In this document: piece by piece, positions 1 through 12,916 of the stretch
Numbering within the stretch: position 1 is the first letter of the stretch
Layout: each line of letters opens with the position of its first letter
Virus record (IMG/VR): IMGVR_UViG_3300037504_000149
Length of the DNA: 64,000 bases
Source of the DNA: a virus
Taxonomy: Duplodnaviria; Caudoviricetes
Reading direction: 5' to 3' (one strand)
Notes under the pieces: model-generated
What the model was told of the DNA's origin: nothing
Database searches by the model: none
Seen by the model: only the letters and a program-made list of their open reading frames with translations
Made by a program: the position numbers and the translations under genes

Positions 1-2092
1 CTGGTAATGGTATGTTTTGTTTTCTATATTGCTCTTTTAGATATTCAACTACAGTAAGATGCCCTCTACGAGCAGCCATACGTAATGCTTCACCATAACA
101 AGCATGTATATCAGCACCATGTTCAACTAAATATTCAACTACAGGAAGATGCCCCCTTCTAGCAGCCCAACGTAATGCATAATCATTACTAGCATGTATA
201 TTAGCATCATGCTCAACTAAATATTCAACTACAGGAAGATGTCCCTTCGCAGCAGCCGCACCTAACGCATAATCATTCTGAGCATGTATATTAGCATCAT
301 GTTCAACTAAATATTCAACTACAGGAAGATGCCCATACTCAGCAGCCCAACGTAATGCTTCATCATCGTTAGCATGTATATTTGCATCATGCTCAACTAA
401 ATATTCAACTACAGGAAGATGCTCTCTCAAAACAGCCCAACGTAATGCATGATCATCATCAGCATGTATATCAGCATCATGCTCAACTAAATATTCAACT
501 ACAGGAAGATGCCCATTCTCAGCAGCATAACGTAATGCATAATCATTCCTAGCATGTATATCAGCATCATGCTCTACTAAATATTCAACTACAGGAAAAC
601 GCCCATTCTCAGCAGCCCAACGTAATGCTTCATCATCCTTAGCATGTATATTTGCACCATGTTCAACTAAATATTCAACTACAGGAAGATGCCCATTCTC
701 AGCAGCATAACGTAATGCACTATCATTGCCAGCATGTATATCAGCATCATGCTCAATTAAATATTCAACTACAGGAAGATGCCCTTTACGAGCAGCCATA
801 CGTAATGCAGAATCATAATAAGCATATACATTAGCACCTTGCTCCACTAAATATTCAACTACAGGAAGATGCCCTTCTGAAGCAGCCAACCGTAATGCTG
901 CATTATCATCAGCATGTATATCAGCCCCATTATCTAACGCTTCTTTAACACCTTGTAGATCATTATTTTTAACAGCATTAATTAAATCCTTGTTAGATTT
1001 TATAGAAGGAATTGCTTTTAATAATGCATCTATTGCTCCTTTTAGTTCTTCATTATCAAAATCTATAGTATTACCTTCACTATTATAAAGTGTATCTACT
1101 GCTTTAACATAAGCTAATACAGGATTTCCTTGCTCAAAAACTATATACATACCTTCGCCAATATATTTCTCAGCATAATCTCTCTGCTTACCTGTACACC
1201 ACTTAGTTCCTTGACTATCCCTAAATAATGCTTCGACATCTAGATAATATCTAACTTCATAAGTATTATCTTGATATTTAACTTCATAACCTTCTTCTTT
1301 ACCTACTTCTTTAGTACCACCTATTTTAATATCAAAAACATTACTTAGTAGTATCTTAATATCATCTACATATAAATCTTGCGTATCTAAATTACTTAGA
1401 TTATCAAAATCTATACTTTTATCTATATTAACTGTTTCATTATTTTGATTTAGTAACTTACTCTCATAAGGATCCCAAAGGAATTTAACATTAGTAGAAG
1501 GAAATACAAATCCATAGTAAGAACCTTTATCTATCCATTCTTCTGCTATTCTAGGATTATTAGTATCTAGACTAGTTCCTCTACTAAACTCCATTAAGGC
1601 TTCTTTATTACTAAGCTCTAATATCTTGCATTCATTTAGATTAGTTTCTATATTATAAGCTAACTCACGAGTACCTTGATCAACTAAGTTTAACCATTGT
1701 TGTTTATTAGAAGTATAATCAATATTCTTCATTGTTTCTATTAAATCCTGCCAAGTATATTGTTGTATATCCTTAGAAGGTAATACACCTGGAATATCTT
1801 TAATAGTGTTAAAGTAATCTAGATATTTAGTTAGGGTATCTCCTTGTTCATCTAGATCTAAACCATACTTTAATACTTGAACTATTAACCAATGATTATA
1901 AGATGTTCCGGTAGGATCATATTGCTTAACTTGATCAATCAAGTTATAAGCATATTGCTCATCATAATCCTCACCCATGATATTTTGAATATCAGTAAGG
2001 AGCCGCTTATTAACAGCTAGAATGTTAAGCCAAGCAAGATAAGATGATGTTGTATTTTGAGTAATACAATACTTTATACCTGTTGTTCTCAT
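1..2092 (-). CDS. Ankyrin-repeat protein 1 (>697 aa, C-terminus runs off the window): N-terminal DPTG..Y..W region, two tandem GTxWCT-type domains, N-cap and 10 ankyrin repeats of 30 aa
   Basis: Absent from the ORF track because it is truncated. Manual translation from ATG 2092 (MRTTGIKYCITQ...) stays open to position 2 and ends ...HLTVVEYLKEQYRKQNIPLP. Repeat consensus xxDxALRxAAxxGHLPVVEYLVEH(D/G)A(D/N)IHA. Confidence 0.9.
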   Translation of the reverse strand, partial: MRTTGIKYCITQNTTSSYLAWLNILAVNKRLLTDIQNIMGEDYDEQYAYNLIDQVKQYDPTGTSYNHWLIVQVLKYGLDLDEQGDTLTKYLDYFNTIKDIPGVLPSKDIQQYTWQDLIETMKNIDYTSNKQQWLNLVDQGTRELAYNIETNLNECKILELSNKEALMEFSRGTSLDTNNPRIAEEWIDKGSYYGFVFPSTNVKFLWDPYESKLLNQNNETVNIDKSIDFDNLSNLDTQDLYVDDIKILLSNVFDIKIGGTKEVGKEEGYEVKYQDNTYEVRYYLDVEALFRDSQGTKWCTGKQRDYAEKYIGEGMYIVFEQGNPVLAYVKAVDTLYNSEGNTIDFDNEELKGAIDALLKAIPSIKSNKDLINAVKNNDLQGVKEALDNGADIHADDNAALRLAASEGHLPVVEYLVEQGANVYAYYDSALRMAARKGHLPVVEYLIEHDADIHAGNDSALRYAAENGHLPVVEYLVEHGANIHAKDDEALRWAAENGRFPVVEYLVEHDADIHARNDYALRYAAENGHLPVVEYLVEHDADIHADDDHALRWAVLREHLPVVEYLVEHDANIHANDDEALRWAAEYGHLPVVEYLVEHDANIHAQNDYALGAAAAKGHLPVVEYLVEHDANIHASNDYALRWAARRGHLPVVEYLVEHGADIHACYGEALRMAARRGHLTVVEYLKEQYRKQNIPLP
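31..960 (-). repeat. Coding tandem array of ten 90-bp ankyrin units plus N-cap
   Basis: The block 'atattcaactacaggaagat' recurs at exact 90-nt spacing (about 131, 221, 311 ... 851), with a variant copy at about 41. Confidence 0.95.
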
Positions 2093-2121
2093 TATTTAGA
2101 TCCTTCGGGTTCAGTGTACTA

Positions 2122-3006
2122 TTAGATGGTCCAGATATTATGGCCGAAGGGTACCATAGCCATTAAGATGAAGTTCTCTACATATCTTACACGTCTACCA
2201 AGTCCCATGTGTGAGCCTCCATCCTTGTACCTAGCAAGAGGACTCATCTCAAGATCTGATTGATATAATTGTTCGAACGTATCTGCTAAACGCATATAAT
2301 CTCGTTCTACACGTACACTAACTGGTGGTAGGTCGGCAGTATGTCTATTGGCTTCCTCCAAACTCTGCCTCACTCTAAATGCTTGTGCTAGAGATGAGTT
2401 AAGTAATAAATGCTCCAATTGTTCGGGAAAATCTTCTAAAGTCCACCCTCGTTCACCTAATGTGTGAGAATAGGCTGTATTCAAGCGAGCAAGAGATGTT
2501 TTAAGACACATGGCTAATTGAGAAGTAGACCAACGACCTGCTTCTTCCCAAAAGTTTACTCGCCATAGTTTAGGATTATGCTCAAATAACAGTAATCGTA
2601 ATGTTTGAAGAAAGTATTCTGGCCTAGAAACAGTACCTAGTTCAACTGTATCCTTTATTATTTGTAAATCTCCATGTTTAAATCCTCTAACTTCTATTTC
2701 ATAAACACCAGGTTCTAAATCTGCTGTTTGCAATTCTATTTTGTATGTACCATAACCACCTTCACTAGACTTAGGCTTAATGGTTACGTTACGTGGATTT
2801 ACTTCTTTACCATCTTTTGTAAACTTTACACTTATATCACGTGCTGTAGTTGCGTTACCTTGTTTACTTTCAAAGCCAGCAACATAAAAAGCAGCGTATT
2901 GCTCTATACCTGCAATATATGAAACTTGTGGACTAGATAAAGTTCTATACTCAGATGGTGCTAGTACGGTTCCGTTTAAATTGTCTAAATCAACTTGAGT
3001 TGTCAT
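2122..3006 (-). CDS. Probable neck/head-tail adaptor protein with N-terminal Ig-like beta domain
   Basis: Beta-rich N-terminal half (GYGTYKIEL..ADLEPGVYEIEV). Helical C-terminal half (WSTSQL..CL..SL.RLN...WTLEDFP..LEHLLL) resembles adaptor proteins of large phages. Lies downstream of the capsid gene. Confidence 0.45.
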   Translation of the reverse strand: MTTQVDLDNLNGTVLAPSEYRTLSSPQVSYIAGIEQYAAFYVAGFESKQGNATTARDISVKFTKDGKEVNPRNVTIKPKSSEGGYGTYKIELQTADLEPGVYEIEVRGFKHGDLQIIKDTVELGTVSRPEYFLQTLRLLLFEHNPKLWRVNFWEEAGRWSTSQLAMCLKTSLARLNTAYSHTLGERGWTLEDFPEQLEHLLLNSSLAQAFRVRQSLEEANRHTADLPPVSVRVERDYMRLADTFEQLYQSDLEMSPLARYKDGGSHMGLGRRVRYVENFILMAMVPFGHNIWTI

Positions 3007-3024
3007 TTATTATCACCTAAATAA

Positions 3025-3402
3025 TTAAAGTATGTCTTGAAGAGTACTATTAAGTATACCACTATCTAAAACACCTACACCACCGTCAGGTGTTTTGTAG
3101 GTTGTATTTTTATATAAATCATAATGCTCATTAATAATATATAATTGTTCTTGTGTAGCTTTTTTACCAGGCTGCATCAAATACCCAAAACAACTAACTT
3201 TAACCCATCCTTGATTTTCTAAATATTCTTCTGGATTATTAATAGAGTTTACTTTAGCTAATCCTTGATCTATTAGATCATAAACAATATGAAAAGTTGC
3301 ATCTATATGTCCAGCATATTCAACTGGATGATAATTACCATTAGGTTCCAGCCACATGAATAATGGTATTTTATGTTCATTAACACATATAAAATACATC
3401 AT
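3025..3402 (-). CDS. Hypothetical 125-aa protein, paralog of 4996..5373 (W-x-x-P-N-G...H...G-W/Y-V-x-V motif)
   Basis: Aligns end to end with 4996..5373. Confidence 0.8.
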   Translation of the reverse strand: MMYFICVNEHKIPLFMWLEPNGNYHPVEYAGHIDATFHIVYDLIDQGLAKVNSINNPEEYLENQGWVKVSCFGYLMQPGKKATQEQLYIINEHYDLYKNTTYKTPDGGVGVLDSGILNSTLQDIL

Positions 3403-3411
3403 AATATTCCT

Positions 3412-4971
3412 TTAATAAGCTGCTATTATATTCCAAATATAATACGTCTTTGTAAATTTACTACCTGTATGTATACCTTCGGGTAATGGTATGTTTTGTT
3501 TTTTATATTGTTCTTTTAGATATTCAACTACAGGAGTATGCTCATTTAAAACAGCTAGACGTAATGCCCAACCTTCCCAAACGTTTATATCAGCACCTTG
3601 CTCAACTAAGTATTTAACTATAGGAAGATTTCCTTTCTGAGAAGCTGCACGAAATGCAAAATCATAATCGGCATGTATATTCGCACCTTGCTCTACTAAA
3701 TATTTAACTACAGGAAGGTGTCCTCTCCAAGTAGCCTTACGTAACGCATAATCATCATCAGCACGTATATCAGCACCTTGCTCAACTAAGTATTTAACTA
3801 TAGGAAGGCGTCCATACCAAACAGCCCAACGTAATGCATAATCATCATCAGCATGTATCATCTTTTCTGCTGCTTCTTTACCCTCATTTTGTTTAATATA
3901 TTCTACTAAATATTTAACTACAGGAAGATATCCTTCCATAGCAGCATAACGTAATGCCTCATCATCCGCAGCATGTATATCAGCGCCCTGCTTAACTAAG
4001 TATTCAACTACAGGAAGATATCCTTCCATAGCAGCCCAACGTAATGCTTGATCATTGTTAGCGTGTATATCAGCACCCTGCTCTACTAAACATTCAACTA
4101 CAGGAAGTTGTCCATGATAAGCAGCAATACGTACTGCATAATCATCGTCAATGTGTATATCAGCACCATCATCTAGAGCTTTTTTAATTCCTTGCAGATC
4201 ATTACGTGCAATAGAACTTATTAACAATTGTGTTGCTTCTTTAATTTTTATAATCCTATCTTTATCCATTTCAGGATTTTTCATTAAATCAAATATTTCT
4301 CTAAGTTCTTCTTCGTCACTACTAAAATACTCAGCAACTGTTCCACCATGATGAGCAACATCTTTAATATGATCTATTAACATCATTCTTTTATCTACAT
4401 CTATTTCTTGTTCTATCTCTTGTAACTGATCTTCGATACCTTCGTGTACTCCATCTCCGGTCATTCTAGGAGTATTTTCTTCTCTAATAAGGTTAACTAG
4501 TTTATTAGCAAAGATATCTAATATCTTAGTAAATAGTTCAGGAGCTAGATTATTTAGATATAAATTTTTGTAATAATGATATAAATTTAACCATTCAAAA
4601 CCATTTAAAAATTCTATATTACCAAAAGCATCTTGCTCTAAAAATTCTATTGCTTCAGTTACAACAGGAGCTTCATAAACATCATCGACATAATTAGTAG
4701 TAGTATCATTAGGATGCTTATCTAATCTCATTATAATGTTTTGTAAATCATCATCTAGTAAATCTATATCTCCGTAAACTTTTGTAACATGATCTCTAAA
4801 TTCAGATAATGTGGTTATGGATTCCCCATTAGGAGAAATAACAGTCATACCATTATTTAGTTTAGTAGTATAACCCATGTTACTCATGATTTCTGCTATC
4901 TCATAAGTTTCATCTACATAAGAATAATAGTATTTCATACTAGTTTTAAACTTCATAATTATATTGTCCAA
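3412..4971 (-). CDS. Ankyrin-repeat protein 2: unrelated N-terminal domain, N-cap, 7 ankyrin repeats and the same C-cap as protein 1 (start may be ATG 4956)
   Basis: Repeats such as DDDYALRWAVWYGRLPIVKYLVEQGADIRA; C-cap EYLKEQYKKQNIPLP. Confidence 0.9.
   Translation of the reverse strand: MDNIIMKFKTSMKYYYSYVDETYEIAEIMSNMGYTTKLNNGMTVISPNGESITTLSEFRDHVTKVYGDIDLLDDDLQNIIMRLDKHPNDTTTNYVDDVYEAPVVTEAIEFLEQDAFGNIEFLNGFEWLNLYHYYKNLYLNNLAPELFTKILDIFANKLVNLIREENTPRMTGDGVHEGIEDQLQEIEQEIDVDKRMMLIDHIKDVAHHGGTVAEYFSSDEEELREIFDLMKNPEMDKDRIIKIKEATQLLISSIARNDLQGIKKALDDGADIHIDDDYAVRIAAYHGQLPVVECLVEQGADIHANNDQALRWAAMEGYLPVVEYLVKQGADIHAADDEALRYAAMEGYLPVVKYLVEYIKQNEGKEAAEKMIHADDDYALRWAVWYGRLPIVKYLVEQGADIRADDDYALRKATWRGHLPVVKYLVEQGANIHADYDFAFRAASQKGNLPIVKYLVEQGADINVWEGWALRLAVLNEHTPVVEYLKEQYKKQNIPLPEGIHTGSKFTKTYYIWNIIAAY
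3480..4200 (-). repeat. Second 90-bp ankyrin array (7 units, one carrying a 30-nt insertion)
   Basis: Periodic 'actaa..att.aacta.aggaag' blocks; the period is broken by +30 nt at about 3859-3900. Confidence 0.9.
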
Positions 4972-4995: not shown

Positions 4996-5373
4996 CTACA
5001 GTATTTTATTTAATGTGTAATCTAATCTATCCTTACTAAAGCGTATATTCATGGGACCATAATAATCAATAGACATGACTTTGTTGCAATACTTATCATA
5101 ATGAGCCATTATTACTTCAAATTGGTCATCGTTAATATGTAATCCATTAAGCATAAGATATCCAGCGTCAGTAACTCTTACATACCCTAATTGTTCTAGT
5201 AATAATTCAGGATCTTTATTGATAATAGATGTGTCCCCTGAATCAACCATCTTACTTACTATTGCCGCAGCTTTCTCACCATGTTCAGCATAATTCACAG
5301 GGTAGTAATCACCGTTTGGTGCGACCCACATAAAAGGTGGAATATAGTCATTAGTACAAATAAAATATATCAT
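4996..5373 (-). CDS. Hypothetical 125-aa protein, paralog of 3025..3402
   Basis: MIYFICTNDYIPPFMWVAPNGDYYPVNYAEH versus MMYFICVNEHKIPLFMWLEPNGNYHPVEYAGH. Confidence 0.8.
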   Translation of the reverse strand: MIYFICTNDYIPPFMWVAPNGDYYPVNYAEHGEKAAAIVSKMVDSGDTSIINKDPELLLEQLGYVRVTDAGYLMLNGLHINDDQFEVIMAHYDKYCNKVMSIDYYGPMNIRFSKDRLDYTLNKIL

Positions 5374-5584: not shown

Positions 5585-6715
5585 CTACTCATCTAAAGAT
5601 AATAAATACTCTCTAGATATAGCTTTAAAGGACACATTGTACTGTTTTTTCTTAGTAACAGCCCTAGATCGTACAACTATTCCTTCCTGTAAAACAGTAG
5701 GAACTAATGTACTTTTACTATCAGCTAAGTTTAAAAAGTAAGCTGTATCCATATTCTTAGCCAATACTAACTTAGTATTGATAATAGGTACAGTTTGTAA
5801 TCCCACCTTATCACAAAGATTTACAATATCAGGAAATACTACATATTCCATACTATTAATTTTAAAAATATTAAATACAAAAAACTTAAGTTTGTTAAAC
5901 TTATAGTTATTCTTTTGTACTCGTGGCCCAACTATCTCCCCTTGGACTGCCACAGACTCACCTAGTAATGTACTCAATTGCTCCAACCGCTTGCGTAGTT
6001 CATATGAACGAGCAATATTCCAATAATTGGTATCATCTTCTATAGGTCGAGCTTTGTTACGAGAAGCTACGATAAACTTAGGACGAGAAAACCATCCTTT
6101 GGGCTTATAAAATGCAAAAGTACCACTTTGTCCATCGAGCTTTTCTGTGACGTAGCATTCTGTTCCAGCAGCTAGTTCACCTATATATGGTAAATTCTGG
6201 ATGCGTTCTTCATCTGTTTTAGGTATCTCAGGTGGGAACGTTCCTGTAGCATCTCCTACAAGCCTACTTCGTATAGCTCGGAAAACCTTAAACCGCATAA
6301 AGAAGTTAAAGATACCAGAACGTTTATTACTTTTAGGACTTTTAGAGGCTTGCTGACGTACATGAGGCTCATACTTTACTACTCCAATAATATCAGTAAC
6401 ATCTTGACCTATACTAAGATCAACTTTATGAGTTGTAAAATGTTCCAGTATATCCACCGGCATAGCTAAACCTTGAGATATCTGGCCTCTAAGTTTAATT
6501 GTCTTTACACGAAATTTACTCCTACGCATAAATTCAAACACAGGGTGGTCGGGAAGCACAGAATCAGTTTCAAAGAAAATACACTTATCCCCTACTTTAA
6601 ACTCGTTCTTCTTAGCAACAAGTTCCCATCCTTTAACTGTAATACATACAATTCTGTCAGCTCCCTTAATAAGAGAAATAGAATCTACACGCTGAATTGT
6701 AGCCAACTTACGCAT
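5585..6715 (-). CDS. ATP-dependent RNA ligase, DRB0094-like family (N-terminal OB domain plus nucleotidyltransferase domain)
   Basis: N-terminus MRKLATIQ..GADRI...GWELV.KKNEFKVGDKC.FFE.DS.LP; motif I TEKLDG; also QGEIVGP, EGIVV, SFKAIS. Confidence 0.88.
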   Translation of the reverse strand: MRKLATIQRVDSISLIKGADRIVCITVKGWELVAKKNEFKVGDKCIFFETDSVLPDHPVFEFMRRSKFRVKTIKLRGQISQGLAMPVDILEHFTTHKVDLSIGQDVTDIIGVVKYEPHVRQQASKSPKSNKRSGIFNFFMRFKVFRAIRSRLVGDATGTFPPEIPKTDEERIQNLPYIGELAAGTECYVTEKLDGQSGTFAFYKPKGWFSRPKFIVASRNKARPIEDDTNYWNIARSYELRKRLEQLSTLLGESVAVQGEIVGPRVQKNNYKFNKLKFFVFNIFKINSMEYVVFPDIVNLCDKVGLQTVPIINTKLVLAKNMDTAYFLNLADSKSTLVPTVLQEGIVVRSRAVTKKKQYNVSFKAISREYLLSLDE

Positions 6716-6735: not shown

Positions 6736-6769
6736 TAAAAAAGCCTGTACTAGTAGTATAGCACAGGCT
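6736..6769 (-). terminator. Rho-independent terminator
   Basis: Minus-strand RNA AGCCUGUGCUA-UACUAC-UAGUACAGGCU followed by a U run, after gene 6793..7446. Confidence 0.75.
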
Positions 6770-6783
6770 GCAAACTTTTTCAA
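6755..6783 (-). promoter_or_regulatory. Sigma70-type promoter TTGAAA-N17-TATACT for the RNA ligase gene, overlapping the terminator
   Basis: Exact 17-nt spacer; the same motif occurs at four other sites. Confidence 0.75.
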
Positions 6784-7894: not shown

Positions 7895-8914
7895 TTAAGC
7901 CCAAACGTTTGTAGCATATGCACCGCGAGATACACCGTAAGAGTTCCATACGGACATACCACAACGTTGCCATGCAGCTACACCAATCAACATCTGGTCA
8001 GGATAGTTTACCATCTGTACCTTAGTTGTCTGCCTGATAGGCATCCATCCTAGGTGTTCATCGTCGGTAAGTGCGTAAACCTTTTCCTCGTTATTTGAAG
8101 ATGAAATCAAGTTAGTGACATGAATTTCTACGCCACCCCATGATCCGATATAACCTTGCTTATTTACTTCATCCAGCAAGTCTATACCTAGCTCTTGGAT
8201 CTGCCATGTCTGGATAGAACGTGGCAAGTTAGGTCCACCCAAGAAGGCTGTTACGTTCAGCCTGTGCTCTTCAATTTCCCTACGCATACCTGCTAGGAAT
8301 GTCCTAGTCGCTAGTGTAGAAACAGATGTTTCGGAGTTTGTTACGGTTGACTGAGCGTCTAGCAAGTTCAAGAAGCGGGTGTCTTCAAGCAAGGCCATAG
8401 CGATACCAGCCTTATCTTTCAACCTATCCACTACGTTGAACATTGTTTCAACGGTGTCTTCGTAACGCACGTATCCGTTAAAGGCGATGTTGAAAGGATC
8501 CAACTCTAGTCTACGAGCTATTAGGGTGTAATGATCTGCACGTCCATTGTCCGCTACGCGAGCAGCCATGACGTTATCCAGTTCACCAATTGCTCCCCAA
8601 GTTAGGTCGTAATCCCTACGCATAGGGATAGCTGGAGGGTATTCTTCAACAACCCACAAACTACGGTTGATTGGAGCATAATCGAGATAGTGCCTTAGAG
8701 GTGATACTAGCGTTGCAGCTAGGATTTCACGAGCACGAGGACTCCGTGCCGCAGCAGCAAAAGCACGCTTTAGCTGCCGACTTTCCTTGGCCTCTACCTG
8801 ACGATTAGCGATTCTTGCCATTGCAGGGTTTTTTGGCTTACTTTCTTCCTGCGCTTTTTGCAGTGCGCTAGCCAATATTTGCAATGCTTGGTTACTGTTA
8901 ATCTGTTGTGCCAT
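7895..8914 (-). CDS. Major capsid protein (HK97-like fold)
   Basis: Follows protease, scaffold and decoration genes. Motifs PLRHYLDY..INR.L.VVE, DRLKDKA..AM...ED.RF, G.IGSWGGVEIHV. Strong AGGAGGTG RBS, C/G-richer codon usage and a downstream hairpin suggest high expression. Confidence 0.8.
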   Translation of the reverse strand: MAQQINSNQALQILASALQKAQEESKPKNPAMARIANRQVEAKESRQLKRAFAAAARSPRAREILAATLVSPLRHYLDYAPINRSLWVVEEYPPAIPMRRDYDLTWGAIGELDNVMAARVADNGRADHYTLIARRLELDPFNIAFNGYVRYEDTVETMFNVVDRLKDKAGIAMALLEDTRFLNLLDAQSTVTNSETSVSTLATRTFLAGMRREIEEHRLNVTAFLGGPNLPRSIQTWQIQELGIDLLDEVNKQGYIGSWGGVEIHVTNLISSSNNEEKVYALTDDEHLGWMPIRQTTKVQMVNYPDQMLIGVAAWQRCGMSVWNSYGVSRGAYATNVWA

Positions 8915-8936
8915 TTGTATTATTCACCTCCTGGCG

Positions 8937-9428
8937 TTATGTTGTGATTAGACGGTCTAGGTAGAATACTACTTCCAGGTCACCATCAGAAGCAACGTCG
9001 CTTAGAACGTATCCTGCGATAAGCTGGTTTATACTACCACTACCTACTGCGTTATCCCATTTACCATTGTCAGAGATGTACAGCGGGTCACCGGCTGTCC
9101 ATGTACCGCCTGTAGGTGAAGTCTCGTATGGGTATGAATCCGTATAAGAGCTGGACATATTTTTAGGCGTTTCACTGCACAGCACGGCTTTTAGCGATCC
9201 TTGTGGACGGTAAATAGTAATCCTATCACTTGTACCAGCACGATAATTAAAGTAGTCATCGCAAAAAGCGAATAGACCGATAACAGTAGTGCTAGTAGTA
9301 TCCACAGTTATGATTTCCCCACTTGAATCCAATGCAGCAGGCATACCACCTTCAAAAGTACTTAAACTTGAAGAAGGCACCTGAGAAGCATCAGCAAACA
9401 TAGGGTTGTCAAGAGTTCTTATAGCCAT
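8937..9428 (-). CDS. Head decoration / capsid cement protein
   Basis: Small beta-rich protein directly upstream of the capsid gene; WTAGDPLYISDNGKW..IAGYV pattern. Confidence 0.6.
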   Translation of the reverse strand: MAIRTLDNPMFADASQVPSSSLSTFEGGMPAALDSSGEIITVDTTSTTVIGLFAFCDDYFNYRAGTSDRITIYRPQGSLKAVLCSETPKNMSSSYTDSYPYETSPTGGTWTAGDPLYISDNGKWDNAVGSGSINQLIAGYVLSDVASDGDLEVVFYLDRLITT

Positions 9429-9448
9429 TTATTGTTACACCTCCTAAA

Positions 9449-11503
9449 TTAGGGTAGGTCAGGGCGTGTATGGTCTCTTACACGTCCAAATATGTTTAGG
9501 TTCTTTGAAGCGTTCTGAGCTGTTTTTTCATCTAAATCAGCTACAGCTTCCATGTCTGTATACTCATCACTACTTTCTATCCTTCCTTCAGAGTACGCTT
9601 TATATGAATTAGCAATTTTTGTTGCTTGCGTAATCAAATCCTGGTCAGATAGTCCGTTTAAATGCTCCTTGAAGCGTTCTACATTTAGTTGCTTTTCTTC
9701 AGCAGTAGCTAATGTTTGTGCTAGATTAGCGGATACATTGATCCACTTTTCTCTCATCTCATCAGAAGCTATACGCTTGTTATCTACTTTAGAGCTTTCA
9801 TATATTGCTTCAGCTTGAGTAATGAATTCATCAGCAGCTTCGACATTAGCTTTTTCTGAATTAACATCACCTGATGCAGCTAGTATTTGTTCTTCTAGAC
9901 TTGTATCATTCTCCGCAGCTTCGATTTCTTCCATCATCTTTAAAGCTTCCTCAGAATCTTTACCGAATGTTGCTTCTAGATCTTCTTTAGATGCTCCAAA
10001 TGTGGATAGAATTTCCATAACCTCATCATCAGTTACGTCTACTTCTGTATTAGCCTTTTTCAAATCAGCATCATCGTCTAAAGATCCGGGTGCTTCTTTA
10101 CTAGGGCCATCATCTGGTTTAGGTTTATTCTTTGCTCCAGGTGGACGACCTCTACCGTCAGAACCACAATCTACGTCAAATTTATGTCCGCAATTAGGGC
10201 AAGTTACATTCTTTTTCTTGCTTCCCTTATCTGGACTATCTTTAGATTTGCTAGGTGCATCTTGAGGTGGTTTATCCATCTTAGGTGGCATACCATCCGA
10301 CTTAGGATCTGGCATAGGTGGTTCATCACCTATAGCTGTTTTCTCTATCCTATCAATCTTGATGGGGCTTGCTTCGTGAGGATATCTAATCTTTTTCTGA
10401 TTTTTGACTTTTCCAAAATTAGATTTATTAGACATCTTAACACCACCAGGAATTACTTCGCCACTCTGCCCGATCTGGTCCTTACCTTTCGGGTATGCTC
10501 TTTGAGTGCCTTTTTCATAAGGCTGTTGCATTGTTTCGGTTTGTTTCTGGGGCTTTGCTTTTTCAGCATCACTAAATTCCCTATCAAAATCACTAGTTCC
10601 TGTAGTTTCATAATTCTTGATAGGCCCCATACATTTTTCCATAGGGTTGTTAGCTGCTAAAAACTCTGCGGCCATCTGTGGATTGAAAGTAGGACTATCA
10701 GGATCAACAAACTTCGCGTACCAAGCTTTAACTTCTTTTTCCGTACTTGGAGTTTCAGTTGTGGTAGCGTTAGGAGTGTTTTCAGGCTGCTTAACATCTT
10801 CCTTCGCTGATCCGTCTTGATCGGCCTTTTTCTTCACATTAGTGGCCTGCATTCTATTAGACAACATAGCCCTTACTTTATTGTAAAGTTGCTTGTCTCC
10901 CATGCTTGTTGACCTCCTGATCTCTCGATTACCTGTAGCTATTGAAAATTCTCCGTCTGTTGCTACAGGTCTTGTTTGTTCCCCTTCACCTGGGTAAGTG
11001 TTAGGGACAGCTTTATTAGGTTTTGGTATCTTATTGTGTGTTTCACCAACGTCTTCATTTACGGCATGTTCATCTTTGATTTCTTCTTTAGTCTCTTCTT
11101 TATGTTTAGCTTTATACTTAGCTTTTGCTTGCTCTAACATCTGTTTACCAAATGCTTCACTAGTTAAGTCATCTTCGGCAAGATTACCATAACCGTCTAA
11201 GTAAGCTTCTTTATCTACTTCAGCAACTGGTAAACTAGCTACTTCTTCTTCACCATAGTAAAAATGCCATGTTGTATTTTCCTCATCATAAAGACAAGAC
11301 CATTTCTTTTCTTCTACTGGTTCTGGTGAACGTACTTTATCTGTGTCATCTAAATCTTTGTCATATGGTTGACGTACCATACCGTAGTCCCCGCCAGATG
11401 ATTGAGGGATTCCCCCCATACCAGGAACATTCTCATTTATAGATGGTTCGGCTGCCTCTTTTAGATAGGCAGGTATTCTTTTATTTTGTTTATTATTCAC
11501 CAT
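9449..11503 (-). CDS. Scaffold / prohead core-like protein
   Basis: 684 aa, low-complexity and acidic, with one CPNCG knuckle and a helical C-terminus; lies between protease and capsid genes. Confidence 0.6.
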   Translation of the reverse strand: MVNNKQNKRIPAYLKEAAEPSINENVPGMGGIPQSSGGDYGMVRQPYDKDLDDTDKVRSPEPVEEKKWSCLYDEENTTWHFYYGEEEVASLPVAEVDKEAYLDGYGNLAEDDLTSEAFGKQMLEQAKAKYKAKHKEETKEEIKDEHAVNEDVGETHNKIPKPNKAVPNTYPGEGEQTRPVATDGEFSIATGNREIRRSTSMGDKQLYNKVRAMLSNRMQATNVKKKADQDGSAKEDVKQPENTPNATTTETPSTEKEVKAWYAKFVDPDSPTFNPQMAAEFLAANNPMEKCMGPIKNYETTGTSDFDREFSDAEKAKPQKQTETMQQPYEKGTQRAYPKGKDQIGQSGEVIPGGVKMSNKSNFGKVKNQKKIRYPHEASPIKIDRIEKTAIGDEPPMPDPKSDGMPPKMDKPPQDAPSKSKDSPDKGSKKKNVTCPNCGHKFDVDCGSDGRGRPPGAKNKPKPDDGPSKEAPGSLDDDADLKKANTEVDVTDDEVMEILSTFGASKEDLEATFGKDSEEALKMMEEIEAAENDTSLEEQILAASGDVNSEKANVEAADEFITQAEAIYESSKVDNKRIASDEMREKWINVSANLAQTLATAEEKQLNVERFKEHLNGLSDQDLITQATKIANSYKAYSEGRIESSDEYTDMEAVADLDEKTAQNASKNLNIFGRVRDHTRPDLP

Positions 11504-11534
11504 TCACCTATGCATTGGCTACTTTTCTAATGTT

Positions 11535-11547
11535 ATTATAACATAAA
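11535..11547 (-). promoter_or_regulatory. Extended -10 promoter TTTATGTTATAAT upstream of the scaffold-capsid operon
   Basis: TTATGNTATAAT motif shared with 15687, 21256 and 46778; overlaps the palindrome ATGTTAT-T-ATAACAT. Confidence 0.65.
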
Positions 11548-11575
11548 TAGCTTTTTATAAATGAATTTCACAGAC

Positions 11576-12916
11576 TTACTTCCACCTATCTGGGATATAT
11601 TCAAAGTCTTCCTTCCATTTACCATCATCTTCATCATCATCTTTAGTATCTACAGCTAAATCTACACCAACTGGAATGTCCGTTTTTAGTAACTCTTCTT
11701 CATCGGCTTTTTTAGCAGAGTCTACACTATCAAGTTTAATATCTTTTAAATTACCGTGGAATGGTGCATCAAATTCCAGCGGTATCTCGTGTGCTTCTGG
11801 GGGAGGAGTGAAGTATGGGTTATCTTCAGAATCTCTATAATCAGCTATTCTTATTTTAGCTAAATTACCTATCATACGTTGTGCTTCTTTTATTTTTTGT
11901 GTAGCTTCTTTAAATATTGCTGCTTCATCACCGTGTAATATAATAGGTGTAGAGTTGTAATCCTCTGTATTTGTACTTATTACAGGAGCTGCTGTCTTCC
12001 TAATTAAAGCTTGACCAACTCTTGATGATCCTGAATCTAAGTATGCATTCCAGAAGTCTTTATTCTCTTTATCATCTTCATATTTCTTAATTATATCTTT
12101 AATATCTATGACAGAGTTTTCAATTACTTTATGACCACTATATACTTTCATAATCTTAGCATAAGGGTCGGCTCCTCCGCCAATAGGTGCTTGTGTGGTT
12201 ATTATAGAGTCTTCAAAGAATAAGAAATCTTTAACTATTTCATAAACATCCCTTGATAATGCTCCATATTTCATCAATTCATGTTTATCTTTTAAGTGTA
12301 CACAAAAATCATTTAAATCGTATATTTGTTTACCACACACACTACATGTAGAATACGCAGCCACACACCCCATACTGGTGTCTGTAACTACACCGCCTGT
12401 AATTAATGTTGGTAAACTAGGGAATTTCTTCTCAGCAGTAAGTACATCTATGATGCACACATTATCTACATATACTGCTCGTGGATCTTCCGGGTAGAAT
12501 ACGGATGGTCGTAAAGCTGAATCATATACTACACCTATTTTATTGTTATCGAAATCTCCATTATCATGATCTATAAATACAGCGGAACCTAAAAACGTTT
12601 TATACCTGTCCCTCAAATCAACTCCCATAAATCCATCGTGGTTTAAATTAGGACCGGAATCTTCTATAGAAGACATAGCTCTAGTTCTGTAATACAAATA
12701 TCTATCAGGATATAGCTTTACAGCACTTGCTGCCTTCTTCAAGAAATTGTCAGCAGCATCATCATTTAATGCTAGTTTTACAGGAACATCCTGTATATCT
12801 TGTACATTGAACGCTGAGCTAAGTATTCTACGACTGCGTTTAGTTACGTTTAATGGATGTGCACCATAAAATCTACGTTTATAATTATCTGGGTTTATAT
12901 TTCTTAAACTTGCCAT
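11576..12916 (-). CDS. Prohead maturation protease
   Basis: N.NHDGF...YKTF.G..VFIDHDN, TSMGC...CSVCG...CVH, FFEDS...GADP.A: the His/Ser protease pattern with a Zn knuckle seen in large phages; sits in the head operon. Confidence 0.75.
   Translation of the reverse strand: MASLRNINPDNYKRRFYGAHPLNVTKRSRRILSSAFNVQDIQDVPVKLALNDDAADNFLKKAASAVKLYPDRYLYYRTRAMSSIEDSGPNLNHDGFMGVDLRDRYKTFLGSAVFIDHDNGDFDNNKIGVVYDSALRPSVFYPEDPRAVYVDNVCIIDVLTAEKKFPSLPTLITGGVVTDTSMGCVAAYSTCSVCGKQIYDLNDFCVHLKDKHELMKYGALSRDVYEIVKDFLFFEDSIITTQAPIGGGADPYAKIMKVYSGHKVIENSVIDIKDIIKKYEDDKENKDFWNAYLDSGSSRVGQALIRKTAAPVISTNTEDYNSTPIILHGDEAAIFKEATQKIKEAQRMIGNLAKIRIADYRDSEDNPYFTPPPEAHEIPLEFDAPFHGNLKDIKLDSVDSAKKADEEELLKTDIPVGVDLAVDTKDDDEDDGKWKEDFEYIPDRWK

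Follow-up and report, generated by a model that had tools for sequence, protein, structure and literature searches.

Introduction

In fungal NOD-like receptors (NLRs), including the Podospora HET-E/NWD proteins, repeats of high internal conservation (HIC) of the ANK, TPR and WD types are polymorphic in repeat number and undergo concerted evolution within and between paralogues (PMC4986451; PMC12222747), and in the ANK repeats five positions are positively selected, all but one of them on the inner helices and the loop of the concave face (PMC4986451). Here we describe an ankyrin repeat protein with a similar pattern, ANK1, which is encoded at the edge of a 64,000-nucleotide stretch of DNA (the window) taken from the tailed-phage record IMGVR_UViG_3300037504_000149 (Duplodnaviria; Caudoviricetes). 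As in the fungal receptors, the repeat DNA of ANK1 is near-identical, a few codons diversify, repeat number is polymorphic, paralogues exchange sequence and the arrays are joined to different constant domains. The differences are that ANK1 belongs to a tailed phage, has no NACHT/NB-ARC match (Pfam, residues 1–364) and is built from a 30-residue repeat with a shortened turn. Against the threshold that defined HIC repeats in Dyrka et al. 2014, 85% identity over at least 100 residues (PMC4986451), the ANK1 repeats share a mean pairwise identity of 72.5% (range 57–87%; 70–90% to the consensus), in a system sampled in two lineages; we therefore regard ANK1 as working like the HIC type but do not count it among the members. 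Binding modules that are re-tuned in this way are known in fungal immune receptors but have rarely been shown in phage.

Several other systems resemble ANK1 in part. Designed ankyrin repeat proteins (DARPins) and consensus ANK designs (6mol, 5le2, 4o60) are its best matches in the PDB by both sequence and fold, and share with it a fixed framework, both caps and a diversified turn and first helix. However, ANK1 is natural, its beta-turn is three residues shorter and lacks the finger loop, positions 4 and 8 (T6 and L10 of the DARPins) vary as well, and the array is fused to a 364-residue domain and a conserved tail. The short ankyrins of giant viruses (Mimiviridae and others) and of Harpellales are of the same 30-residue subtype, with 45–63% identity to the ANK1 array, and in giant viruses they likewise occur as tandem paralogues and as arrays on constant domains (for example, contig L003, below); the giant-virus locus that was tested differs from ANK1 in genome type, in a synonymous divergence (dS) of 0.6–0.7 in the framework and in having no excess of change at the variable sites. 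The 34-residue units of transcription activator-like (TAL) effectors are near-identical in DNA except at the repeat-variable di-residue, so that specificity resides in a few hypervariable codons, and evolve by inter-unit recombination, but these proteins have another fold, read DNA bases and are bacterial type III effectors. Finally, ankyrins of tailed phages, namely ANKp of the sponge Ankyphage and those of Wolbachia phage WO, have been proposed as binders for host manipulation. ANKp is small, and two of the sponge-phage ankyrins have signal peptides and are presumed to be secreted toward eukaryotic cells (10.1101/608950); in the text consulted, no frozen framework with hypervariable codons is described for these phage ankyrins.

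Results and discussion

Differences between ANK1 repeats are concentrated at six codons

An initial annotation of the window had described ten 30-residue ankyrin units with a framework frozen almost to the synonymous sites and six positions that change by whole codons. The ten units are present and in frame, but they lie on the minus strand, and with an N-terminal cap that had not been counted the array comprises eleven units (Table 1). The 17 repeats that the annotation proposed to analyse correspond to ten in ANK1 plus seven in a paralogue, ANK2. The claim of an array holds; the annotation had overlooked on which strand it lies, the N-terminal domain, which accounts for half of ANK1, and the fungal NLR precedent (PMC4986451). 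Tandem Repeats Finder gave a period of 90 with 9.8 copies and 83% matches at 41..925. Profile scores place ANK1 in the ankyrin repeat superfamily (Pfam Ank_2, 305.2 bits against a cut-off of 27.3, E 1e-92; Ank, 172 bits against 21.1), as does the modelled solenoid of stacked helix-turn-helix units; the unit is exactly 30 residues, not the canonical 33 with a beta-hairpin finger, so that it represents a short subtype within the superfamily. On the plus strand, the small open reading frames 382..552 and 652..834 merely mirror the repeats in another frame and were rejected as genes.

For the codon analysis, codons 1, 2, 4, 8, 11 and 12 of each repeat were taken as the variable class and the other 24 codons as the framework. 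Among the nine internal repeats (A01–A09) the framework was 92.7% identical at the nucleotide level, with a dS of 0.12 and a non-synonymous divergence (dN) of 0.06 (Nei-Gojobori), whereas the variable codons were 46.8% identical, with a proportion of non-synonymous differences (pN) of 0.55 and a dN of about 0.98, which bears out the description of the framework as frozen. Where two repeats had the same framework residue they used the same codon in 91% of cases, compared with 44.5% expected from the codon usage of the phage, and the shared codons included rare ones such as GGG (11% of Gly) and CTT (13% of Leu). Codon bias was therefore rejected as the cause of framework identity. The six variable codons held 59 of the 86 differences from the consensus, where 17 were expected, and none of 20,000 shuffles reached 59 even when the six most variable codons were chosen post hoc (maximum 41). 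Position 2 does not change by whole codons but is limited to D, N and Y through single-base changes, and position 14 was also moderately variable (H/Y/R/Q/N). Tyr or Trp accounted for 29 of the 108 residues at variable positions.

The same contrast was found outside the internal repeats of ANK1. In the ANK2 array of the window, dN was 0.82 at the six codons against a dS of 0.31, and in the ANK2 array of a sister phage (below) the values were 0.92 and 0.26. A dN/dS of 1 or below at the variable positions, which the initial annotation had named as a refuting outcome, was not found: in every comparison made, the six codons taken together gave a ratio above 1 (dN 0.8–1.03, dS 0.12–0.35). These results indicate that the framework is identical by descent or has been homogenised, and that change is concentrated at the six codons beyond neutral expectation. 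Gene conversion by itself cannot pass over codons that alternate with framework at intervals of 3–9 nucleotides, and so selection for diversity is needed, on a framework that is young or continually homogenised. The six positions are under diversifying selection, in that no neutral model fits.

The variable residues are predicted to map to one face of helix 1 and the preceding loop

A single-sequence AF2 model of residues 355–714 (pLDDT 80.2, pTM 0.72) had two helices per 30 residues and no strands; helix 1 covers positions 4–12 of the repeat and helix 2 positions 15–23. The top Foldseek matches of this model were DARPins and ankyrin-1 (probability 1.00), with TM scores up to 0.76 (7v0x). When ANK1 was aligned to DARPins by phmmer, a three-residue gap fell in the turn of every repeat, and in the resulting register positions 11 and 12 corresponded to the randomised x13 and x14, position 1 to x33, position 8 to L10 and position 4 to T6. 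On a helical wheel, positions 4, 8, 11 and 12 fell within a 100-degree arc, with conserved residues filling the remainder. This supports a model in which the variable residues make up one face of helix 1 (four positions) together with the loop before it (two positions), and, because of the secondary-structure register and the established architecture of ankyrins, we infer that they would line the concave face. The suggestions that the variable residues occupy the site through which ankyrins and DARPins bind their targets, and that the array is a 30-residue ankyrin solenoid of the type common in giant viruses, both gained support here, the second from Pfam, the model, the DARPin alignment and the homologue matches.

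Arrays turn over between closely related phages

To compare the arrays between phages, relatives were located by a protein search with the array, which found an ANK2 orthologue (P0075), and by 90% clusters of the neighbouring genes. Two lineages were obtained: independent Logan assemblies of the window's own phage (L005 and L007), and a sister lineage represented by Logan contigs from three runs (L001, L004 and L006) that are 7–11 single-nucleotide polymorphisms (SNPs) apart. Between window and sister, the neighbouring genes had a dS of 0.12–0.34 and a dN of 0.02–0.05, and the N-terminal domains of ANK1 (88% identical, dS 0.24) and of ANK2 (about 93%) were similarly close (dS range 0.12–0.24). 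The arrays were not: the sister ANK2 has five repeats in place of seven and is without a 10-residue insert, its framework is nearer to that of window ANK1 (dS 0.18) than to that of window ANK2 (0.35), and among the C-caps its own most resembles that of ANK1 (A10). The sister ANK1 array is known for its first 2.8 repeats; repeats 1–3, compared by position between window and sister, gave a dN of 1.03 at the six codons against a framework dS of 0.25. All 24 repeats seen have a unique set of residues at the six positions.

Variation was also evident among the three near-identical sister strains, in which the ANK2 array contained four distinct SNPs, all non-synonymous and located at repeat positions 14, 12, 14 and 4, giving a SNP density about five times that of the flanks, although these counts are small. 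Thus, arrays turn over between close relatives, with signs of exchange between paralogues. The idea that these arrays are shaped by recombination together with diversifying selection is supported by the ratio above 1, by array turnover and by the signs of paralogue exchange, and an array that is invariant across related phages, which would have spoken against it, was not what the comparison showed.

ANK2 has an N-terminal domain unrelated to that of ANK1 but carries the same caps and tail. The C-terminal tail, which in the full ANK1 product (P0003) reads IPLPGIYTSSKLTRIYYIYDE, is common to ANK1, ANK2 and sister ANK2, and the joint C-cap and tail motif EYLKEQY.KQNIPLP.(G)I.T.SK.T..YY.. was found at 2..54(-), at 3415..3533(-) and at L001:5056–5175, even though the arrays before it differ. 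The conserved C-cap and tail may be a docking or packaging signal.

ANK1 as a putative protein-binding surface of variable specificity

Taken together, these observations make it probable that ANK1 combines a conserved N-terminal module with an 11-repeat short-ankyrin solenoid that serves as a putative protein-binding surface of variable specificity. The near-identical framework of the 90-bp units supplies the homology for recombination among them, both within ANK1 and with ANK2, with the consequence that the arrays of close relatives differ in the number, the order and the framework type of their repeats. In that no neutral model fits, selection favours change at about six positions in each repeat, of which four are placed by the modelled register on the exposed side of helix 1 and two in the loop ahead of it. 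No two repeats therefore present the same set of residues, and Tyr, Trp, Asp and Asn are frequent in these sets. The variable stripe would run along the concave groove and is likely to be the binding surface for a target that itself varies, most likely a host protein met during infection. The N-terminal module might then act on, or anchor, the bound complex, and delivery with the virion is possible, given the proximity of the head genes and the occurrence of the module in at least one polyvalent protein.

Several points weigh against this interpretation. The classes of site were first picked by eye, although the shuffle test with the six most variable codons is independent of that choice. The repeats are not independent samples and their positional orthology across phages is uncertain, so part of the high dN may stem from non-orthologous units having replaced one another, not from point substitution. 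SNPs at the level of strains are few, only two phage lineages were sampled, and the mean repeat identity lies below the 85% that defines the highly conserved fungal repeats (PMC4986451). Repeats A03–A10 rest on a single metagenomic assembly, as the independent Logan contigs stop at window position 690, and the placement of the variable positions in three dimensions is inferred from secondary-structure register and alignment.

If the interpretation is correct, phages share with the innate-immune sensors of eukaryotes a device for quick changes of specificity, a scaffold homogenised at the DNA level with a few selected codons. Natural alleles, which differ mainly in six residues per repeat, would then offer a tractable spot at which to study the interfaces of a phage-host arms race. 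The array is also a natural, shorter (30-residue) capped ankyrin scaffold that tolerates wide variation on one face, and as such is of interest for binder engineering. By analogy, one could go further and suppose that tailed phages run a recombination-driven repertoire of binders comparable to the fungal NLR sensors or to lamprey variable lymphocyte receptors (VLRs), in which 90-bp ankyrin units shuffled within and between two genes would put new faces on different constant 'effector' domains, to be delivered by the virion against fast-evolving host proteins such as defence systems; we consider this wider scheme speculative and, as it stands, unlikely.

Alternative explanations

The reading that survives best beside this one is that ANK1 and ANK2 are borne by the virion, either packed into the head and injected or decorating the particle, with the tail as the signal for packaging or docking and host molecules contacted by the variable face during entry. 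It concerns delivery only and so is compatible with a binding surface of variable specificity. The ankyrin genes close the head-gene block on the same strand, and the tail stays conserved in ANK1, ANK2 and sister ANK2 although their arrays do not. In addition, a polyvalent protein with an ART-PolyVal domain is among the relatives of the N-terminal module, and for polyvalent proteins whose genes neighbour virion genes both packaging and injection have been predicted (PMC5512222). In ANK1 itself the domains found were the module and the ANK domain, not the several disparate catalytic domains by which polyvalent proteins are recognised. However, a hairpin and promoter-like site at 6742..6783 may split the block from the head genes (in scans whose counts were at chance level), and an RNA ligase shares the block with the ankyrin genes. 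On this evidence, virion carriage is a tentative idea that we would not expect to hold.

A eukaryotic target seems somewhat less likely again. Here the phage would infect a symbiotic or intracellular bacterium and its ankyrin would manipulate the eukaryotic host, as proposed for ANKp and WO. The nearest arrays by sequence come from giant viruses, Harpellales fungi and a Coxiellaceae metagenome-assembled genome, the only GenBank phage matches to ANK1 are Wolbachia WO (26–31% identity), and in assays with macrophages ANKp lowered both phagocytosis and the expression of cytokines (10.1101/608950). Set against this, two of the sponge-phage ankyrins are small proteins with signal peptides, whereas ANK1 has a phage-specific, cytoplasmic-looking domain of 364 residues and an N-terminus that, judged by eye, is not signal-peptide-like; moreover, the G+C content of ANK1 is that of the genome.

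Assembly error was partly excluded, and we regard it as improbable. Short reads might have collapsed or mis-ordered near-identical repeats, so that repeat number and order and some hybrid units were not real; indeed, highly conserved repeat domains of Podospora could not be reconstructed from Illumina-based assemblies (PMC12222747), and for both phage and sister the Logan contigs end within the arrays or shortly ahead of them. Nevertheless, no 77-mer occurs twice in the ANK1 array, where exact internal repeats reach at most 57 nucleotides, and the sister ANK2 array has no exact internal repeat longer than 19 nucleotides and is therefore unambiguous at k=31. The independent Logan contigs of the window's own phage had no mismatches over window 690..3615, and L005 was identical to window ANK2 over residues 1–393. 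Mis-joining, in any case, cannot generate 24 distinct residue sets.

It is less probable still that ANK1 carries an ordinary old array in which the fold conserves the framework and the variable sites are merely unconstrained, with neither diversifying selection nor concerted evolution. All ankyrin repeats have conserved structural and variable surface positions, and the same six positions vary in two unrelated arrays of the same repeat subtype that served as controls, one on a phage-like contig encoding a PcfJ+ANK protein (L002) and one on a giant-virus contig (L003). But purifying selection on the protein does not keep synonymous sites, whereas the ANK1 framework retains the same codons, rare ones included, at twice the expected rate (0.91 versus 0.445), and its dS of 0.12–0.31 is far under the dN of 0.8–1.0 at the variable codons. 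In the control arrays the framework dS was 0.6–0.9 and the ratio consequently near 1, so not every ankyrin array is picked out by this statistic. The giant-virus control (ENA NODE_685, 16,140 bp, encoding a nucleocytoplasmic large DNA virus (NCLDV) capsid and a D5-like primase) contains two adjacent paralogues with a nearly identical C-terminal domain and N-terminal short-ankyrin arrays that differ in length and residues, and a third allele of these paralogues (P0048) was seen on a separate contig.

Lastly, a diversity-generating retroelement (DGR) or other codon-directed mutator writing the variable codons was rejected as very improbable, since, although variation limited to a few codons in a fixed sequence recalls DGR variable regions, the 64-kb window, out of a genome of about 230 kb, holds no extra template copy of the unit outside ANK1 and ANK2 and no IGNxxSQ reverse-transcriptase motif, the variable codons vary at all three codon positions and with all four bases, without a bias to adenine-templated positions, and ten or more tandem targets are unlike the DGR layout.

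The N-terminal module of ANK1

The N-terminal domain of ANK1 contains an unnamed phage module with the motif DPT..W..KQ..LPED..KDIN.Y..GTxWCT..YL..GPLY. There is one full copy at residues ~35–200, which is degenerate and has lost the Trp-Cys pair, and a partial second copy at residues ~250–340, in which GTKWCT is kept. The module was found in 38 cluster representatives, in proteins of 250–2,521 residues; none of them has a Pfam family over the module, and one carries ART-PolyVal. The AF2 model of the module had a pLDDT of 90.6. In comparisons with the PDB, no Foldseek match fell below E 0.001, the best VIA Z was 5.4 over 69 residues, and a profile search of PDB sequences gave nothing below E 0.1. 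A relationship to PcfJ was not supported, the alignment by hhalign to a PcfJ+ANK protein having a probability of 0.8%. Among atlas neighbours, look-alike domains were joined to Ank, LRV, WG-beta or DUF4116 repeats, which we treat as a lead only. One 530-residue Logan protein (P0004) has the module followed by about nine repeats of about 35 residues with the motif G(R/P)WPEAE, that is, another type of repeat on the same constant domain. With its confident fold, no solved match and its joining to several kinds of repeat in other phage proteins, the module merits characterisation in its own right.

The phage and the neighbourhood of the ankyrin genes

Table 1. Features of the ankyrin locus. Coordinates are window positions; residues are abbreviated aa.
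Feature	Coordinates	Strand	Remarks
ANK1 gene	2..2092	-	From the open reading frame list; cut by the window start, 697/714 aa inside the window; full product P0003
ANK1 N-terminal domain, aa 1–364	1001..2092	-	No Pfam match
ANK1 N-cap A00 (KSNKDLINAVKNNDLQGVKEALDNGADIHA)	911..1000	-	Kept in sister phage, 28/30 aa, dN 0.03
ANK1 repeats A01–A09, nine internal 90-bp ankyrin repeats	101..910	-	Used for codon table, Nei-Gojobori counts, codon-usage null and shuffles
ANK1 C-cap A10 (CYGEALRMAARRGHLTVVEYLKEQYRKQNI)	11..100	-	Codons 13–33: 56/63 nucleotides identical to ANK2 C-cap
Start of conserved C-terminal tail (PLP...)	2..10	-	Remainder (GIYTSSKLTRIYYIYDE) beyond the window
294-aa gene	2122..3006	-	Between the two ankyrin genes; no Pfam or PHROG match
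Second 125-aa paralogue	3025..3402	-	Between ANK2 and ANK1
ANK2 paralogue	3412..4971	-	Likely start ATG at 4956; N-terminal domain unrelated to that of ANK1
ANK2 repeats B01–B07	3490..4149	-	B03 has the 10-aa insert
ANK2 N-cap	4150..4239	-	ANK2 has the same caps as ANK1
125-aa gene	4996..5373	-	Upstream of ANK2; paralogue of 3025..3402 (43% identity, E 7e-26)
RNA ligase (PHA02142 OB-fold + RNA_ligase)	5585..6715	-	Heads the block holding the ankyrin genes

The source of the window is a tailed jumbo phage of about 230 kb, and the full ANK1 record lies on a contig of 229,864 bp. Searches of the window matched a PolA-type DNA polymerase, an SbcC-like nuclease, the RNA ligase and, weakly, a portal protein; a major head protein and a head protease are also encoded. 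The head genes (major head protein, head protease and portal) are 5–19 kb upstream of the ankyrin genes. No close relative of the window was found among GenBank phages by megablast, IMG/VR scans with the ANK1 N-terminal domain, the 294-residue gene product and the major head protein gave no match, and neither did scans of IMG/VR and JGI metagenomes for the exact DNA pattern of the framework.

G+C content ranges from 32 to 41% across the window and is 34% over the ANK1 array. The stretch 8001..12000 has a G+C of 0.41 against about 0.34 elsewhere, and within it, between the head protease and the major head protein, lies a 684-residue open reading frame (9449..11503(-)) without a PHROG match. Just upstream of the RNA ligase, at 6742..6783(-), a terminator-like hairpin with an 11-bp stem overlaps a TTGAAA-17-TATACT site; the promoter and terminator scan at this block gave counts at chance level.

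The two paralogous 125-residue products, which begin MMYFIC and MIYFIC, have no Pfam family. It was considered whether the array is bound by the product of the 125-residue gene upstream of ANK2. In the sister phage this gene (126 residues) is nearly unchanged, while every variable residue of ANK2 differs, and the sister ANK1 has no such neighbour; binding of the array by its product was therefore rejected. In the sister (L001 and L004) the pair of 125- and 294-residue genes that occupies 2122..3402(-) in the window is absent between ANK2 and ANK1, and ANK1 begins 74 nucleotides after ANK2 (L001:5176–5249). The pair was found in the sister samples on a separate contig of 1,382 bp (L008), both ends of which carry the same ~28 nucleotides (a ribosome-binding site plus ATGATGTATTTTA), and this repeat, together with the absence of the pair from the sister locus, suggests an indel or a tandemly arranged cassette.

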